Source: Vicinamibacteraceae bacterium | GTDB taxonomy: Bacteria; Planctomycetota; Phycisphaerae; Phycisphaerales; UBA5793 | Direction of reading: 5' to 3' | DNA length: 64,000 bases | NCBI GenBank assembly: GCA_011525805.1 | Contig: WYBR01000059.1 | Coordinates: 3,386-67,385 of the forward strand | Shown here: in pieces, positions 47,903-56,187 of the stretch | Position numbering within the stretch: position 1 is the stretch's first letter | How the letters are laid out: each line of letters opens with the position of its first letter | The notes under the pieces: model-generated | Databases searched by the model: none | What the model saw: only the letters and a program-made list of their open reading frames with translations | Told to the model about the DNA's origin: nothing | Made by a program: the position numbers and the translations under genes

Positions 47903-48051
47903 GGCGCCGCATCGCGGGCACACGAACACACCATATACTTATAATATTTTGGTACATCGCTCCGCGGGCGGCGGAGGCCGCCGCACCGTCTCCGGCGCGC
48001 TGGCGCCTGGGGCTGGCGGTGGGAGGCGATGCCGCGGCGCCATGCGAAACC

Positions 48052-48196
48052 GGGCCGAAGAGCCAGCGAAGACGCGAGGAGCGAAGCGACGAGGGCGCGG
48101 CCATGCGATCATTCGCGCTGGCGCGTCGCGCGGACGGGAGCATCACAAGGCGCATCGCTTCGCTCTGCGTCCTTGCTGGCCCGTCGGGCTCGCAGG
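48052..48196 (+). repeat. Repeat family 1 hairpin element, copy upstream of the GT2 gene
   Basis: ggccgaagagccagcgaagacgcgaggagcgaagcga...tcgcttcgctctgcgtccttgctggcc. The arms are complementary. About 85 percent identical by eye to 49065..49206. Confidence 0.7.
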
Positions 48197-48254
48197 TGGG
48201 GGGGGCCGGCGCGAGGCGCCGCGTCGCGCGGGGACGGTCGCCCGGGCGCACGCT

Positions 48255-49055: not shown

Positions 49056-49064
49056 GTCCAATCA

Positions 49065-49206
49065 GGCCGAAGTGCCAGCGAGGACGCGAGGAGCGAAGCG
49101 AAGAGGGCCGCCGCCCAAACGGCCGCGCTGGCGCGTCGGGCAGGCGGGAGCATCACAAAGCGCATCGCTTCGCTCCGCGCCCTTGCTGGCGCTGCGGGCT
49201 CGCGGG
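49065..49206 (+). repeat. Repeat family 1 hairpin element, copy downstream of the GT2 gene
   Basis: ggccgaagtgccagcgaggacgcgaggagcgaagcga...tcgcttcgctccgcgcccttgctggcg. Same orientation as 48052..48196. Confidence 0.7.
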
Positions 49207-49217
49207 GGCGGGGGGGG

Positions 49218-49746: not shown

Positions 49747-50367
49747 GTGCCTGATCACGAACCCAACCCGGCGCCTCGGCGCCCGCCGTCGGCCGGCCTG
49801 CTGCTGGTCATCTCGGGCCCTTCGGGGGTCGGCAAGACGACGATCACGCGCCAAGTGGTCGATCGGCTCGGGGCCGTCTTCAGCGTCTCGGCCACCACGC
49901 GCCCCCCAACCGCGGCCGACACGCCGGGGGTGGACTACCACTTTGTCAGCGACGAGGAGTTTCAGCGGATGATCGCGGCCGGCGACCTGCTCGAGTACGC
50001 CCGGGTTTTCGGCAAGTTTTCATACGGGACGCCGCGTCGGCCCGTCGAAGAGGCCCTTGCTCAGGGAAGGGTGGTCCTGTTGGAGATCGACGTGCAGGGG
50101 GCGCTCCAGGTGCGGGCCAACCTGCCCGAGGCGCTGCTGGTGTTCATCTTGCCGCCGGATGACGCGACCCTGCTTGAGAGGCTCAGAAAGCGGGGTCGGG
50201 AAGGGGAGGAGGAGATCGCCCGGCGCTTCGCCGAAGCCAAGCGGGAGATCGCCACGGCGGAGGGGAGCGGGGCCTATGACCTGTTCCTGGTGAACGATGA
50301 GGTCGAAAAAAGTGTGGCCGAAGTGTGTTTTGCGGCAAGGAAGCGCTTGCAGGGAGGCGTCAGGTAG
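49747..50367 (+). CDS. gmk: Guanylate kinase
   Basis: ISGPSGVGKTT P-loop, SATTRPP, EYARVFG..YGTP. Start uncertain: the GTG at 49747 gives a typical length, and the ATG at 49642 would overlap the neighbouring gene. Confidence 0.85.
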   Translation: MPDHEPNPAPRRPPSAGLLLVISGPSGVGKTTITRQVVDRLGAVFSVSATTRPPTAADTPGVDYHFVSDEEFQRMIAAGDLLEYARVFGKFSYGTPRRPVEEALAQGRVVLLEIDVQGALQVRANLPEALLVFILPPDDATLLERLRKRGREGEEEIARRFAEAKREIATAEGSGAYDLFLVNDEVEKSVAEVCFAARKRLQGGVR

Positions 50368-50426
50368 GGTACATTCTCTAGACCGGAAGTCCGGCTGACC
50401 GGAACCAGACGCTGGAGGACGCGCCC

Positions 50427-51197
50427 ATGAGGCCCCATCGCCCCGCCGCCCGCAAGGGCTTCACCCTCATCGAACTTCTCGTGGTGATCTCGATCATCGC
50501 GCTGCTGATTGGCCTGCTGCTGCCGGCGCTGCAGCAGGCGCGGGAGTTCGGCCGGGCGACCGGCTGTCTTTCCAACCTGCGCCAGATCGGCTTTGCCGCG
50601 ACGGCGTACATCAACGACAACAATCTCGTGCCGCGCGAGGCGGCGAGTATTCCGGGCCGAGACATCGCCTGGGCACTTGCCTTCCGGCCATACTTCTCGA
50701 AGATCAAGGATGACCGGTTCGAGTCGGTACCGATGTACCGGTGCCCGGACCATCCGAACAAGGCACACTGGCTTCACTTCGTCATCAATGCGTTCAATTT
50801 CAGTCGGCCCGGGCAGGTGTACGGCGACCGTCGGGAGGAGCACAAGCCGAATCTGATCTACTTTCCCAGCCAGACGATCTACATGGCGGACTTCACCGAC
50901 GACTCACAGAATATTCTCGTGAACGCGTGGTACGCGCAGGGGCAAAACACGCACGAGAACAACGTCGTGATCTGGTACGACATCTGGGCGGCTGTTCATG
51001 TCCAGCGGCCGATCGAAGGACAGCAGAATGGATTGCGACTGGAGCCGCGCCGACACGTCGGCGGCAGCAACGCACTCTTCCTTGACGGACACGCCGCAAG
51101 GCTGCCCGAGGAAGACATGCAGAACCTCGATAACTGGGACGATCGGACCTACTTGCGAGGCAACGTGAACGATTACGAGCGCAACCGGTATCGGTAA
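50427..51197 (+). CDS. Prepilin-type N-terminal methylation domain protein (DUF1559-like)
   Basis: [31 protein letters not shown], then CLSNLRQIG, and C-terminal [14 protein letters not shown]. Confidence 0.85.
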
Positions 51198-51208
51198 ACG
51201 CCAGGTAG

Positions 51209-51226
51209 GTCAGGTCGCGACCTGAC
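51209..51226. repeat. 18-bp perfect palindrome GTCAGGTCGCGACCTGAC
   Basis: Lies 12 nt after the stop of 50427..51197. Possible terminator stem, but no T-tract. Confidence 0.5.
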
Positions 51227-51316
51227 ACGGCGTGCAAGCGCCGCCGATCGTGCGGAAGGCGTGAATCGGGATTCATGCGACGGGACGACGTGCGCCGCAG
51301 CGCCGCACACGCGAGC

Positions 51317-51334
51317 GTCAGGTCTCGACCTGAC
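51317..51334. repeat. Near-identical palindrome GTCAGGTCTCGACCTGAC
   Basis: Second copy, starting 108 bp after the first and 20 nt beyond the stop of the sdhA 3' fragment. Confidence 0.5.
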
Positions 51335-51354
51335 CGACGGCTGGACCCGCCCCC

Positions 51355-51453
51355 TCACACACTCGCCGCGACCTTCTCCTTGGCCGGCTTCTTCTCCGCC
51401 GCGACCTTCTCGACTTTGCCGTAGGTCCGCGCCTTGGGTTTGGCGAGGCCCAT
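51355..51453 (-). pseudogene. Orphan duplicate of the last 32 codons of sdhA
   Basis: Encodes MGLAKPKARTYGKVEKVAAEKKPAKEKVAASV*. Compare ...MGLAKPKARTYGKVEKDAAEKKPAAEKVAAASA* at 53318..53419. No upstream sdhA sequence is attached. Confidence 0.75.
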
Positions 51454-51570
51454 CTGCTCTGGGCATGATCGTTGCGGCTCGGCGGGCATTCCGCCGATAC
51501 TCTGACGTACAATGGTGAAGTGCCGCCCGGAGATCGGCGGGCGGGCGCGCCCCAGCCCGGCGTCCACGCG

Positions 51571-52374
51571 ATGAAGAGCCCCAAGTACAAGAAGCCGCCT
51601 GTCGTCGAGACCGTCCTCGGGGTGCAGTTCCCGGAGATCGCTGAGTTCGGCAACGTTCACTTCGGGCTGTACTGGGAGACGATCCGCGAGCGCTACCCGA
51701 AGCCGCCGCAGAATCAGCCGCGCATCGCGTGGGCCGTGGAGACTTTTCCGTACCGACCGCTGCCGGCGGGACTGAATCTGCGCCTCAGCGATCGGGGGCC
51801 GCAGCGCATGTGGTTCACGGCCGAGAGCGAATCGGAACTCATCCAGGTCCAGCCGGACCGCTTCCATTTCAACTGGCGCGGTGAGGAGGGCAAGCCGTAT
51901 CCGTCGTACCGGGCCAACTCGCGGAAGTTCTTCGATGAGTTCGCGGGCTTTGAGGCCTTCTGCAAGGGGCAGGGCTGGGAGCCGCCCAGACCGAACCTGG
52001 CGGAGGTTACCTACGTCAACCACATCCTCCCAGTGGAGGGAGAGACGAGCATCGAACTCTTCCAGAAGGCGTTCGTCGGCGTCGACTTCACGGAGGTGGT
52101 CGAGATGCCTTGCCTGCCGGAGCGGGCGGTCTTCAACCGCGTCTATCCGATGGAGGGCGAGAAAGGACGGCTGTACGTCGAGGCGAATCTGGCGCAGAAG
52201 CGCGACCGCACGGAGTTTGTGCTGCTCAAGATGACGGCGCGGGTGATCGTCCCTCCCACCGGTGCGGTTCCATTGGCCGAGGGCCTCCAGAAGGCGCATG
52301 ACTGGGTCGTGGGCGGCTTCGCGGCCATCACGCGGCCCGAGATTCAGCAGCAGAGATGGGAGCGGATTGAATGA
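51571..52374 (+). CDS. TIGR04255-like uncharacterised protein (cassette gene 1)
   Basis: The ATG at 51571 gives MKSPKYKKPPVVETVLGVQF, which matches the N-terminal signature I recall for the TIGR04255 family. 267 aa. Its stop overlaps the next start (ATGA). Confidence 0.7.
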   Translation: MKSPKYKKPPVVETVLGVQFPEIAEFGNVHFGLYWETIRERYPKPPQNQPRIAWAVETFPYRPLPAGLNLRLSDRGPQRMWFTAESESELIQVQPDRFHFNWRGEEGKPYPSYRANSRKFFDEFAGFEAFCKGQGWEPPRPNLAEVTYVNHILPVEGETSIELFQKAFVGVDFTEVVEMPCLPERAVFNRVYPMEGEKGRLYVEANLAQKRDRTEFVLLKMTARVIVPPTGAVPLAEGLQKAHDWVVGGFAAITRPEIQQQRWERIE

Positions 52375-52883
52375 ATCCCGACATGCTCGAGTATGCACCA
52401 ACCGGCGCGGCCTTCAGCACCTGGCGCGTGGAGGAACGCGTGGAGGAACTTGCAGCGAGCGCACTCGGCGACACTGTCGTGCTGGAGAAGCATCGAACGC
52501 CGGTCTTTGCGGTGCGCACGGCGCCGGCGCCTTGGTTCGCCTCTGTCAACCAGGCCATCCTCCGCCTTGCTGACCGCAGTGAGAACTGGGACAGTTACGG
52601 GGCAAAGGCGATTGATCCGGCCGCGGTCGCGAACGCAACGCGCATCGCGCGCGAGTTGGCCATGATCGAAGGCGTCGCACGGCCCGTGGTGGGCGGCACG
52701 CCGGACGGTGAAGTTGTGTTCGAGTGGGACACCGGCGAGTGGAGCCTCGACCTGACCGTCGATCCATCCGACCAGTTCCACTACGCCTATCTGGATCGGC
52801 TCGATCCGGCGTGCGACGATGAACAATACACGCGGAACCTCGACGATCTACTTGTCCTGCTCACGCAACTTCCGAGGCGCTGA
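52371..52883 (+). CDS. Unknown protein (cassette gene 2)
   Basis: 170 aa. ...ENWDSYGAKAIDPAAVANATRIARELAM...PVVGGTPDGEVVFEWDTGEWSLDLTV. No family recognised. Its stop overlaps the next start (TGATG). Confidence 0.68.
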   Translation: MNPDMLEYAPTGAAFSTWRVEERVEELAASALGDTVVLEKHRTPVFAVRTAPAPWFASVNQAILRLADRSENWDSYGAKAIDPAAVANATRIARELAMIEGVARPVVGGTPDGEVVFEWDTGEWSLDLTVDPSDQFHYAYLDRLDPACDDEQYTRNLDDLLVLLTQLPRR

Positions 52884-53308
52884 TGGGCGCGGGTGAAGAC
52901 GACGCCGATCTTGCCAACGCCTCTCCTCTGGTGGAATCAGAGACGCTGATTCGCCGAGTTCTTCCGGACGGGATCGTCGAGCGGCCCGGCATCGGGTGGA
53001 CGGCCCAATCAGGCGCGCTCAGAGCCACCGACGATGACCCGTACCCTTCGTGGAGCCTCCTTCGAGTCACATCACCGCAGCGCCTTATCGAGATTGAGTC
53101 CATGCGGCGAGATACACGCGGCTGGCACGTTGTGGCCATCTCCATCGGGCAACTCGCAGCACTCGGAATCACGGTGGTTACAGATCCCACTGAAGAGGAT
53201 CCCGGTCACTGCATCCTCAAACCCGCCGATGCTGAGCCGTTCAAGGGCAAGTCGATCTGGAAAAAAGTTGCCGAACGCACACGCGTCGTCTACACCCATC
53301 CCTCCTGA
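52883..53308 (+). CDS. Unknown protein (cassette gene 3)
   Basis: 141 aa. ...LIRRVLPDGIVER...SGALRATDDDPYPSWSLLRV...VAISIGQLAALGITVVTDPTEEDPGHCILKP. Ends 9 nt before the sdhA stop on the other strand. Confidence 0.65.
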   Translation: MGAGEDDADLANASPLVESETLIRRVLPDGIVERPGIGWTAQSGALRATDDDPYPSWSLLRVTSPQRLIEIESMRRDTRGWHVVAISIGQLAALGITVVTDPTEEDPGHCILKPADAEPFKGKSIWKKVAERTRVVYTHPS

Positions 53309-53317
53309 TCGCCTTAC

Positions 53318-55210
53318 TCACGCGCTTGCCGCCGCGACCTTCTCCGCGGCCGGCTTTTTCTCCGCCGCGTCCTTCTCGACCTTGCCGTAGGTCCGCGCCT
53401 TGGGTTTGGCGAGGCCCATGGTGATGTCCTCGTAGCGGATGCTCGGGCGGCCGCTGCCGGGTTCCCACTGCGCCACGGTCGTCTTGAGGAACCGCTCATC
53501 GTCGCGCTCGGGATAGTCGGTGCGGTAGTGCGCGCCGCGACTTTCCTTGCGCATCAGGCCGCCGAGGAGAATCACCTCGGCGAGTTTGAGCATGTCGCCC
53601 ACCGCTCGCGCGAAACTGAGGTTCTGGTTCGTCCACAGGCCGTGGTCGGCGAGGCTGATGCGCGAGTAGCGGTCCTGGAGTTCGTGCAGCACCGCCATGG
53701 CCTGCGTCATGCGGGCCTCGGTCTTCACGACGGTCGAGGCGGCGGTCATCTCCGCCCCCATCTCGTGCGCAATGACGTAAGGATTCTCGGGGCCGCTTGC
53801 GTCGATGAGGTTCTGCATCTTGCGCGTTTCTGACTCGACGGCGTCGTCGAAGAGGCCCGCGGGCCGATCGGCCGCGGCGACGGGCAGGCTGCGCACGCGT
53901 TCGGCGATGCCCTTGCCGGCAAAGAGGCCGTCGAAGGTGCATGAGAGCAGGGCGTTGGCGCCGAGGCGCGTCGCGCCGTGGTACTGGTAGTTGACCTCGC
54001 CCAGCGCGTAGAGGCCCTCGATGTTGGTCATCATGGTGTTGGGCGCGCCGTAGACCATGCCCTTGCCGTCGGCCTTGGCGGTGTAGGTCGCCCACATCCC
54101 GCCCATGGTGTAGTGGACGGCGGGGAAGATCTTCATGGGCAGTTCGCACGGATCGTCGCCGGCGAACTTGCGGTAGATGTCGAGGATGCCGCCGAGTTTG
54201 GTTTCGAGGTATTCGCGCGGCTTGTGGGTGAGGTCGAGGTAGACCATGTTGCCCCCGCCCACGCCCAGGCCCAGGTTCACGCACACGTCGAAGATCTCGC
54301 GCGTGGCGATGTCGCGCGGCACGAGGTTGCCGTACTTCGGATACTTCTCCTCGAGGAAGTACCAGCGTTCGCTCTCGGGGATCTGGCGCGGGTCGCGGCT
54401 ATCGCCGGCCTTTCGCGGCACCCAGACGCGGCCGCCCTCGCCGCGGGCGGACTCGGACATGAGGCGGCACTTGTCAGCGCCGGGGATGGCGGTGGGGTGG
54501 ACCTGGATGAACTCGCCGTTGGCGTACCACGCGCCGGCCTGGTAGCAGCGGCTCGCCGCGCCGCCGGTGCAGACGATCGAGTTGGTGGACTGGCCGAAGA
54601 TCAGCCCGTTGCCGCCGGTACACATCACGACGGCATCGCCGCGGAAGGCGCGGATCTGCATCGTGCGCATGTCCTGGGCGACGCAGCCGACGCACACGCC
54701 GCTGTCGTCGAGGATCGGCCAGAGGAACTCCCAGAACTCATACTTGGTGACTTTGCCCTCGGCCTCGGCGCGGCGGGTCTGTTCGTCGAGGGCGTAGAGC
54801 AGTTGCTGGCCCGTCGTCGCGCCGGCAAAGAAGGTGCGCTTGAAGAGTGAGCCGCCGAAGAGCCGCAGGTCGCGGTTGCCTTCCGGCGTGCGGTTGAAGG
54901 GCACGCCCATGCGGTCGAAGAGGTCGATGATGCGCGGCGCCCAGTGGGTCATCTCATAGACGGGGGGTTGATGGGCGAGGAAGTCCCCGCCGTAGAGCGT
55001 CTCCTCCATGTGGATCCACTCGCTGAATCCCTGCTGCCGCGCAACTTCGTTGCAGGCGTTGATCCCGCCCTGGGCGCAGACGGAGTGGGATCGCTTGACG
55101 GGGACCATGGAGATGAGATCGACGGCGATGTCTTCCTCGGCGAGTTTGATCGCGGCCGCAAGCCCGGCGAGTCCGCCGCCTACCACAATGACGCGTTTGC
55201 TGGAAGTCAT
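53318..55210 (-). CDS. sdhA: Succinate dehydrogenase/fumarate reductase flavoprotein subunit
   Basis: 630 aa. VVGGGLAGLAAA FAD fold, RSHSVCAQGGI (His for covalent FAD), HYTMGG, ESRGAHYR. Confidence 0.95.
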   Translation of the reverse strand: MTSSKRVIVVGGGLAGLAAAIKLAEEDIAVDLISMVPVKRSHSVCAQGGINACNEVARQQGFSEWIHMEETLYGGDFLAHQPPVYEMTHWAPRIIDLFDRMGVPFNRTPEGNRDLRLFGGSLFKRTFFAGATTGQQLLYALDEQTRRAEAEGKVTKYEFWEFLWPILDDSGVCVGCVAQDMRTMQIRAFRGDAVVMCTGGNGLIFGQSTNSIVCTGGAASRCYQAGAWYANGEFIQVHPTAIPGADKCRLMSESARGEGGRVWVPRKAGDSRDPRQIPESERWYFLEEKYPKYGNLVPRDIATREIFDVCVNLGLGVGGGNMVYLDLTHKPREYLETKLGGILDIYRKFAGDDPCELPMKIFPAVHYTMGGMWATYTAKADGKGMVYGAPNTMMTNIEGLYALGEVNYQYHGATRLGANALLSCTFDGLFAGKGIAERVRSLPVAAADRPAGLFDDAVESETRKMQNLIDASGPENPYVIAHEMGAEMTAASTVVKTEARMTQAMAVLHELQDRYSRISLADHGLWTNQNLSFARAVGDMLKLAEVILLGGLMRKESRGAHYRTDYPERDDERFLKTTVAQWEPGSGRPSIRYEDITMGLAKPKARTYGKVEKDAAEKKPAAEKVAAASA

Positions 55211-55250: not shown

Positions 55251-56033
55251 TCAGTGCCCGGGTTCGGCCGGAGGAATAGTTGCGGATTCGACCTCGATGG
55301 GTCCGCCGTGGCCGGCCTGCATGGCGGTCTCGATGGCGCGGGCCTCGTCGATGTCGAGCGCCGAGAAGCCGACGACGGCCGCGACGCCGGCGCCGGCGAG
55401 CGCGAGCCCGAGCGCGGCGCAGACGTAGCCCCAGCGCTTCTGCGCCTCGACGCTGATGGTCAGCCCCCATGTGATCGCCGCGGTCCACAGGCCGTTGGCG
55501 AAGTGGAAGACGAGCGCGCTGACGCAGACGAGGTAGAAGAGGGCCATGAGCAGGCCAAGGCCGCCCTGCTGAAAGTGCGCGGCGGTGCTCGACGCGGCGT
55601 GCTCGCCCTCGAAGGCCGGCATCAGCCCGCCGTAGGTCCAGCCGAAACGAAGCGAGGTGATGTGCAGGAAGATGAAGAGGACGCCGACGTAGCCGCTGAG
55701 GCGCTGGAGCGAGTAGCGCCAGTTGTCCTGGTAGTTGTAGGCCTTGACGTTGCCCTTGCCGGTCGTGGCGTAGTAGATGCCCAGCAGGGCGTGGAAGGCG
55801 ATGGGCACGAAGAGCACGAGCCACTCCATGAGCGGGAGGGCGGCGAGGTTGTGAATGAAGTTCACCTCGTGCTGAAAGGTCTCGACGCCCGCGTCACCGT
55901 GCTGGCTCTTTCCCAGCACGCGGCCCCACATGATCGAGGAGTTGGTCGTGAGGTGGAAGAGCAGAAACGCGCCGATGGGGACGATGCCGCTGAGCGAGTG
56001 CAGGCGGCGGAGCAGGAAGTAGTGCCGATCCAT
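55251..56033 (-). CDS. sdhC: Succinate dehydrogenase cytochrome b558-type membrane subunit
   Basis: The ATG at 56033 gives MDRHYFLLRRLHSLSGIVPIGAFLLFHL, similar to the B. subtilis SdhC N-terminus. Five TM segments with conserved His. Confidence 0.85.
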   Translation of the reverse strand: MDRHYFLLRRLHSLSGIVPIGAFLLFHLTTNSSIMWGRVLGKSQHGDAGVETFQHEVNFIHNLAALPLMEWLVLFVPIAFHALLGIYYATTGKGNVKAYNYQDNWRYSLQRLSGYVGVLFIFLHITSLRFGWTYGGLMPAFEGEHAASSTAAHFQQGGLGLLMALFYLVCVSALVFHFANGLWTAAITWGLTISVEAQKRWGYVCAALGLALAGAGVAAVVGFSALDIDEARAIETAMQAGHGGPIEVESATIPPAEPGH

Positions 56034-56187
56034 GAATCCGGCGGATGGTTCAGACACGGCAGAGCGCCTTTCCAGCGGAGGAGCGGGGTGAGGTCGGCCC
56101 CGGCGGCCGCCCCCGGCCGGAGCGCGGCATTATACGGCCGGGCGGAGGTTTCTCTGGCAGGGGGAATTACCTGAAGCCGCGCCGCGA

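Follow-up and report, generated by a model that had tools for sequence, protein, structure and literature searches.

A TIGR04255-led, translationally coupled three-gene cassette at the 3′ end of sdhA, a candidate toxin-antitoxin or defence-like module

The cassette and its insertion at the end of sdhA

The stretch of DNA analysed here (the window) comprises 64,000 nt of contig WYBR01000059.1, positions 3,386 to 67,385, from a Vicinamibacteraceae bacterium that GTDB places in the Phycisphaerales lineage UBA5793 (assembly GCA_011525805.1). At the 3′ end of sdhA it carries a cassette of three small plus-strand genes, here called genes 1, 2 and 3. An earlier reading made from the letters alone (the sequence-only reading) had described them as a coupled unit of one TIGR04255-like protein and two proteins that it could not place, and had proposed them as a defence or toxin-antitoxin (TA) system. 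The three open reading frames (ORFs) were recovered at the coordinates and lengths it had given (Table 1), and the motifs it had quoted for their proteins were present. The overlaps it had reported were also found, the gene 1 stop and gene 2 start sharing ATGA (52371-52374, reading ...TTGAATGAATCCC) and the gene 2 stop and gene 3 start sharing TGATG (52881-52885, reading ...GCGCTGATGGGC). Overlaps of the ATGA/TGATG type were kept in most related loci. Adjacent small genes with overlapping stop and start codons, the layout looked for in a TA system, were found in the cassette.

Table 1. Features of the cassette and its surroundings, with positions in the window.
Feature	Position	Strand	Description
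Gene 1	51571-52374	+	267 aa, TIGR04255 family protein
Gene 2	52371-52883	+	170 aa, domain with NWDSYGA motif
Gene 3	52883-53308	+	141 aa, predicted small alpha/beta protein with conserved R24-R25, S56 and H109
Hypervariable block	52412-53340	+	from gene 2 codon ~15 up to the stop of gene 3
Orphan duplicate of the last ~32 sdhA codons (left direct repeat)	51355-51456	−	matches the SdhA C-terminus
Functional sdhA 3′ end (right direct repeat)	53318-53419	−	part of the sdhA ORF
Upstream leader, putative promoter region	51457-51570	+	unique sequence from the left repeat to the gene 1 start; function inferred only
sdhA	53318-55210	−	
sdhC	55251-56057	−	

The window is GC-rich (mean GC 0.674) and shadow ORFs are abundant in it. 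The three plus-strand ORFs are real genes and not such shadows, because gene 1 matches TIGR04255 over its full length, orthologues of all three genes occur in the same order in dozens of genomes, all three are under purifying selection (dN/dS 0.11-0.39), and plus-strand GC3 is high (0.86 in gene 1, 0.75 in gene 2 and 0.66 in gene 3). An antisense ORF of 348 aa (51355-52401, minus strand) was rejected as a gene, being a shadow of gene 1 whose reading frame was not conserved in the nearest relative, the soil metagenome contig L001. The lower GC content that had been claimed for the cassette was real (0.635 against the window mean) but modest, at the 7th percentile of windows of the same size, and the neighbouring DUF1559-like gene had a GC content below that of the cassette. 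The description of the cassette as antisense to its host operon had to be amended. It shares its orientation with the gmk and DUF1559-like genes that precede it and converges on sdhA, and it does not lie inside an operon.

The flanking genes are gmk, the DUF1559-like gene, sdhA and sdhC. The last two converge on the cassette, and the sdhA stop is 10 nt from that of gene 3. A direct repeat of 90 nt (51364-51453 and 53330-53419, 94% identical) duplicates the sdhA 3′ end, and the minus-strand translation of its left copy, MGLAKPKARTYGKVEKVAAEKKPAKEKVAASV followed by a stop, matches the SdhA C-terminal peptide. The same duplication was found in L001 (92% over 97 nt) and was absent from L004, so that direct repeats duplicating the end of a target gene, as looked for in a site-specific element, were present in the window and L001. 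The insert holds the three genes only, and no integrase or recombinase was found within its 1.9 kb. Judged from these repeats, the 1.9-kb cassette appears to have inserted into the sdhA 3′ end and to have carried in, or re-created, a substitute for that end. In L001 and in L004/L012 (Phycisphaerales bacterium UBA5793) the same three genes were found at the same location, with the gmk/DUF1559-like genes on one side and sdhA on the other. The insertion is therefore old, with the cassette syntenic in three genomes. Thus, the statement that the cassette appears inserted was supported by the flanking duplication of the sdhA end, but the cassette is not a recent acquisition here.

Two copies of an 18-nt palindrome, GTCAGGTC(G/T)CGACCTGAC, were found in the interval from the DUF1559-like gene to the orphan sdhA fragment (51209-51226 and 51317-51334; chance expectation 0). 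Originally they probably served the convergent genes as terminators. A GC-rich hairpin followed by a T-run was found just past the stop of gene 3, within the coding 3′ end of sdhA (53331-53360, plus strand), and the substitutions that form it were absent from the left repeat copy and from L001. The leader upstream of gene 1 was 58-80% identical to that of L001. A scan for sigma-70 promoters and terminators found no sigma-70 consensus, and its count of terminator-like sites was not above that of shuffled controls. An Rfam search of positions 50300-54000 returned nothing relevant, and the window held no second copy of the cassette.

Families and predicted structures of the three proteins

Gene 1 belongs to TIGR04255, as had been recognised from its N-terminus. 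It scored 58.6 bits against an NCBIfam cutoff of 30 (E 7.9e-16), with residues 5-263 aligned to profile positions 1-251 of 252, and had no match in Pfam or PADLOC. NCBIfam lists the family as a “sporadically distributed” uncharacterised protein whose function is not described, and a full-text literature search for the name TIGR04255 found nothing. Its conserved polar residues include E13 and N150. Window gene 1 falls in a divergent subclade, its score comparing with 95-113 bits for canonical members, with which it shares 12-14% identity.

Genes 2 and 3, which the sequence-only reading had left without a named family, could indeed be assigned to no family in Pfam, NCBIfam or PHROG, and profile searches of PDB sequences found no relative of any of the three cassette proteins. 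An exhaustive HMMER search for gene 2 (E <= 1e-3, clusters at 50% identity) gave a family of 2082 clusters, consisting mostly of stand-alone proteins of 120-180 aa. In the AlphaFold2 model of gene 2 (pLDDT 86.6), residues 1-45 were of low confidence and residues 47-170 formed a folded core, predicted to be compact, with helices and a five-stranded sheet. Foldseek found no match to this model in the PDB. The gene 3 model was an alpha/beta structure predicted with confidence (pLDDT 88.8, pTM 0.81). When it was compared with the PDB by Foldseek, no match was significant (lowest E 0.04, TM under 0.35), and in BFVD it had one match, to an unnamed viral protein.

Among 63 members of the gene 3 family, the polar residues conserved were R24 (92%), R25 (95%), S56 (100%), R92 (89%) and H109 (98%). 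The possible catalytic His/Cys pair that had been pointed out in gene 3 therefore fared unequally, as His109 is among these residues but Cys110 was kept only in a close clade. At position 92 the window and L001 have Ala, and L004 aligns there with AAVLKIG, a segment without Arg.

Gene 3 bears some likeness to the R-S-E ADP-ribosyltransferase (ART) toxins, comprising DarT, ParT and relatives of RES. It is similarly small, a conserved Arg lies on its first strand and a Ser is part of an S-x-S motif, and in one phage locus a macrodomain gene accompanies a gene 2-like gene. Unlike in these toxins, the third conserved residue is His and not Glu, and the best Foldseek resemblance, to AvrPphF ORF2 (1s21), was a lead only (TM 0.34, probability 0.13). 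The identification of gene 3 as an ADP-ribosyltransferase was rejected because His replaces Glu, no Glu is conserved, and no significant match to an ART fold was found.

The only family link of genes 2 and 3 was a weak but consistent one, to PDC-M32 among the PADLOC profiles. This two-family cassette (A and B; 98 occurrences in RefSeq) is one of 145 phage defence candidates, put forward because of their embedding in BREX, DISARM or type I restriction-modification (RM) loci (Payne et al., bioRxiv 10.1101/2024.01.29.577857). In our full-text literature search it received only an incidental mention. Window gene 2 matched PDC-M32A with E 4.8e-5 (profile positions 262-333 of 375), and every gene 2 orthologue tested matched its C-terminal ~100 positions (~258-365; E 1e-3 to 2.5e-6). 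Window gene 3 matched PDC-M32B weakly (E 0.054). Half of the close gene 3 homologues (10/20) also matched PDC-M32B, the best with 1.7e-4, and the gene 3 orthologue of a Kapaibacterium (L072) reached 6.3e-9. The order and adjacency of the two PDC-M32 families are those of genes 2 and 3. However, PDC-M32A is ~375 aa long and its first ~257 positions are unmatched by gene 2 and have no counterpart elsewhere in the cassette. Neither window gene 1 nor the canonical TIGR04255 proteins matched it, and the window system has TIGR04255 as a separate gene. The similarity is thus remote, and PDC-M32 is itself a candidate. In PDC-M32A-like proteins of 375-450 aa the gene 2 domain lies at the C-terminus. 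Fusions of gene 1 with gene 2, which could link the cassette to the 375-aa PDC-M32A, were looked for in 60 loci, and none was present.

A conserved trio with an exchangeable, fast-diverging pair

Homologues of genes 2 and 3 co-occurred tightly with TIGR04255 when searches were made in both directions. The gene 2-seeded set consisted of 80 loci from a genome scan together with loci collected earlier, 92 in total, some of them duplicates or cut contigs, and was classified by iterated local profile searches. All three genes were present in the same order and on the same strand in 57 of the 92 loci. Genes 2 and 3 alone, again in the same order and on the same strand, were found in 19 loci that had no profile-detectable gene 1, gene 2 stood alone in 13, and genes 1 and 2 were found without gene 3 in three, two of which were cut by contig ends. 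The upstream ORF of three seemingly gene 1-less loci (two of the 19, plus L080, where gene 3 was also divergent) turned out to be a canonical TIGR04255 gene of 95-113 bits, and the true fraction with gene 1 is therefore higher.

The reciprocal set consisted of 80 metagenome loci and was seeded with canonical TIGR04255 proteins only. In almost all of them the downstream gene overlapped the TIGR04255 stop. A gene 2 relative came next in 58 of the 75 loci that had a downstream gene, and second place was taken by a gene 3 relative in 28 of 61, with a further 17-19 from a divergent gene 3 branch (~45-47/61). The sequence-only reading had named a failure of gene 1 to match TIGR04255 and an absence of co-occurrence as results that would tell against it, and neither was found.

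The gene 2-seeded loci came from at least 12 phyla. These included Planctomycetota, Gemmatimonadota, Rhodothermales, Ignavibacteriales, Acidobacteriota, Chloroflexota, Cyanobacteriota, Myxococcota and SAR324, among others, as well as Gamma- and Betaproteobacteria, with Klebsiella and metagenome-assembled genomes (MAGs) of Enterobacteriaceae. The contexts of the trio varied, with topoisomerase VI and IS200, ValRS, T2SSE and a DDE transposase, and sdhA among its neighbours. Thus, the three genes are conserved as a translationally coupled unit, and this unit moves between genomes.

Its first gene, TIGR04255, is constant, and the two genes downstream are an exchangeable, fast-diverging pair. In 11-13 metagenome loci a canonical TIGR04255 gene was followed by an alternative pair of ~145 aa and ~150 aa (L140, L145, L147, L150, L155, L156, L160, L162, L170 and L175). 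The ~150-aa protein carries a YNCIAWA...HAAR...SKLG pattern, which suggests a Cys/His enzyme, and the pair had no relative in the PDB. TIGR04255-led cassettes of three genes were also found on two plasmids, both with other downstream modules. On the Crinalium plasmid pCRI9333.03 (NC_019754.1; L099, 3992-5822) the TIGR04255 gene precedes two unrelated hypothetical genes. On the Vibrio parahaemolyticus plasmid CP063527.1 (L100, 158-2105) it precedes a hypothetical gene and then a gene annotated in the record as “zeta toxin family protein”, in which a Walker A motif (GCNGAGKST) is visible. The alternative modules were rejected as relatives of genes 2 and 3, since neither hidden Markov model (HMM) searches nor hhalign detected a relationship. 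The first gene is a different one in some loci. In a Dehalococcoidia MAG (L063, 5248-6772) a Prok-JAB gene takes the place of TIGR04255. It has the JAMM motif HSHPESSG and lies directly upstream of relatives of genes 2 and 3.

The divergence of the downstream pair is also seen at the sdhA site itself. When the window was aligned with L001, DNA identity was 85-90% in the DUF1559-like gene, gene 1 and sdhA, and 40-70% in a block with sharp edges, which starts at 52412, at about codon 15 of gene 2, and ends at ~53340, at the end of gene 3 and the sdhA stop. The first ~14 codons of gene 2 belong with gene 1 to the conserved part. The block had a dS of 1.28, compared with 0.61 for gene 1 and 0.33 for sdhA, and its GC3 (0.75 in gene 2, 0.66 in gene 3) was below the 0.86 of gene 1. 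The dN/dS of gene 1 was 0.11. Among the three sdhA-linked genomes protein identity was 89-94% for SdhA, 64-86% for gene 1 (the window protein being 86% and 64% identical to its two syntenic orthologues), 55-61% for gene 2 and 49-51% for gene 3. In gene 1, sdhA and gmk the window and L001 were clearly the closest pair, and in genes 2 and 3 the three genomes were roughly equidistant. The simplest reading of this pattern is that recombination, acting between gene 1 and the end of sdhA, would have replaced the gene 2-3 block, with episodic diversification as the alternative.

Stand-alone gene 2-like proteins of ~90-100 aa were found on phage-like contigs in IMG/VR, and these could be decoys. On one of them, a low-GC contig (L094, 5974-6862; UViG_3300028666_000001), the gene for such a protein, of 101 aa, runs into the start of a gene encoding a Macro domain (PF01661, 39.3 bits). 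These two genes could be an anti-defence pair. A tblastn search of phage and plasmid records with gene 2 gave no match, nor did a search of phages with the L072 gene 3 or of E. coli genomes with the DNA of an enterobacterial-type trio.

Interpretation as a tripartite conflict module

We give about an even chance to the reading that the cassette is a tripartite TA, abortive-infection or defence-like module, and a member of a widespread class that has no name. It is favoured because the first gene is constant, the pairs that follow it are exchangeable and diverge fast, the coupling is tight, the distribution is patchy, and the variable block appears to recombine. The TA or defence hypothesis of the sequence-only reading thus drew indirect, comparative support from the patchy distribution, the swappable module, the hypervariable block and the weak link to PDC-M32, but not from the gene neighbourhoods described below.

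Under the tripartite reading gene 3, a small and enzyme-like alpha/beta protein, would be the effector or toxin, because its invariant Arg/Ser/His set is enzyme-like and it occupies the third position, which in one variant is the slot of the annotated zeta toxin. The conserved gene 3 residues being basic, the Arg-Arg, Ser and His set would suit the binding of a phosphate-bearing substrate, such as a nucleic acid or nucleotide. Gene 2 would be a neutraliser or adaptor whose folded C-terminal domain binds gene 3 and keeps it in check, and whose low-confidence N-terminal tail would connect it to gene 1. This role is proposed because gene 2 precedes the effector, its folded domain co-varies with gene 3, and the start of its tail co-varies with gene 1. 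Gene 1 would act as a sensor, regulator or platform that decides on the release of gene 3, for instance upon phage infection or loss of the locus. In the Phycisphaerales lineage, the cassette would have entered the sdhA 3′ end long ago and would then have been inherited vertically, with the gene 2-3 block replaced or diversified.

The roles could also be the reverse, with TIGR04255, the largest and best conserved protein, as effector or enzyme, and genes 2 and 3 as a fast-evolving specificity or regulatory pair in contact with phage factors. The constancy of gene 1 and the variation of genes 2 and 3 would suit this arrangement, since sensors often vary in immune systems. Phages carry gene 2-like proteins, and TIGR04255 has conserved polar residues of its own, such as those named above. 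We nevertheless consider a reversal very unlikely. The annotated zeta toxin in the third position on one plasmid argues for that position as the effector slot, and the conservation most like that of an enzyme is found in gene 3 (S56, H109 and R25).

The type II TA systems usually have the antitoxin before the toxin. This layout fits a small tailed gene that overlaps, by TGATG, a small gene with conserved residues. As in the omega-epsilon-zeta and toxin-antitoxin-chaperone (TAC) modules of the textbooks, the tripartite cassette has three small overlapping genes, of which the neutraliser would precede the toxin and the third would modulate, and the TIGR04255 gene on the Vibrio plasmid precedes a hypothetical gene and an annotated zeta toxin gene. 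The cassette differs from these modules in that neither sequence nor fold relates it to omega, epsilon, zeta or SecB-like chaperones, and in that its third component lies upstream, has ~260 aa and lacks a recognisable DNA-binding domain.

The resemblance to such modules brings in a selfish explanation, in which the cassette is an addiction system acting by post-segregational killing. It would have no anti-phage role and would persist because its loss is lethal, and the variable block would reflect competition between TA alleles. The architecture, modularity and hypervariability are shared with the tripartite reading, TIGR04255 cassettes occur on plasmids, one of them with an annotated zeta toxin gene, and there is little association with defence islands. 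However, most copies are chromosomal and stand beside housekeeping genes, and the weak relationship to PDC-M32 points to defence loci. The sequence data do not separate addiction from defence, and many TA systems do both. As an explanation without any anti-phage role, we regard addiction as unlikely.

Several results weigh against the tripartite conflict module. An enrichment in defence islands was not seen, as the 133 immediate neighbours sampled at ~70 loci (one adjacent gene per side, with no formal background computed) were mostly housekeeping genes. Defence-like neighbours were single cases, namely type I RM, MTase_II, SoFic, AbiEi, HEC-06 and DarT. The full trio was found on a viral contig only once (L092), and pattern scans of IMG/VR, aimed at canonical TIGR04255 and at close relatives of gene 3, came back empty. 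No activity is identified by any fold or family, Foldseek having returned nothing from the PDB for genes 2 and 3, and the zeta toxin label is the annotation of the record itself, which was not confirmed against the PDB. R92 has been lost from gene 3 in all three sdhA-linked orthologues, and given this loss the effector may be attenuated in this lineage. The roles of gene 3 as toxin, gene 2 as antitoxin and gene 1 as sensor are suggested by analogy and gene order only. Finally, the cassette is here old, syntenic, vertically kept and under purifying selection, which would also fit a domesticated cellular role.

Such a role corresponds to an explanation in which the three genes encode a non-toxic accessory complex, for example in stress response or regulation, and the conflict-like features are coincidental. 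The synteny with sdhA in three genomes that share 89-94% identity in SdhA is consistent with it, as are the purifying selection on all three genes, the mainly housekeeping neighbours elsewhere and the lack of a recognisable toxin domain. It sits poorly with a patchy distribution across phyla and unrelated contexts, with the replacement of the downstream module by unrelated pairs, one including an annotated zeta toxin, with the sharp-edged block of raised dS, and with the signature of insertion. For these reasons an accessory complex seems to us distinctly improbable.

As a small multi-gene TA or defence candidate the cassette is of a known kind, and a distant two-gene relative has already been listed as a candidate. 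The TIGR04255-led trio, its breadth, and two proteins with no fold match in the PDB appear to be undescribed in the literature searched. If the tripartite reading is true, it would give a first functional context for TIGR04255, a family annotated but unexplained for more than a decade, and would define a common three-gene system (over 2000 clusters of gene 2 at 50% identity, from at least 12 phyla). For two of the cassette proteins, structures were predicted with confidence and had no match among those already solved. The constant gene, the swappable pair and the sharply bounded block provide natural experiments on specificity. A module kept stably beside a core respiratory gene also bears on the retention of conflict systems outside defence islands, where island-based discovery misses them.

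A wider proposal is that TIGR04255 could be the sensor or platform shared by a large and unrecognised class of immune or TA systems, each of three components and with interchangeable neutraliser-effector pairs. The gene 2-3 pair would be the dominant one, gene 3 would have a new toxin fold with an Arg/Ser/His site, and the phage gene 2-like proteins would be decoys. We put this forward tentatively, as rather unlikely when taken as a whole.

Elsewhere in the window, a direct repeat of ~160 nt (48048-48205 and 49060-49215, 87-90% identical) flanks a glycosyltransferase ORF at ~48.3-49.05 kb. The repeat was detected in the form of two neighbouring families with a spacing of 1010-1012 nt.

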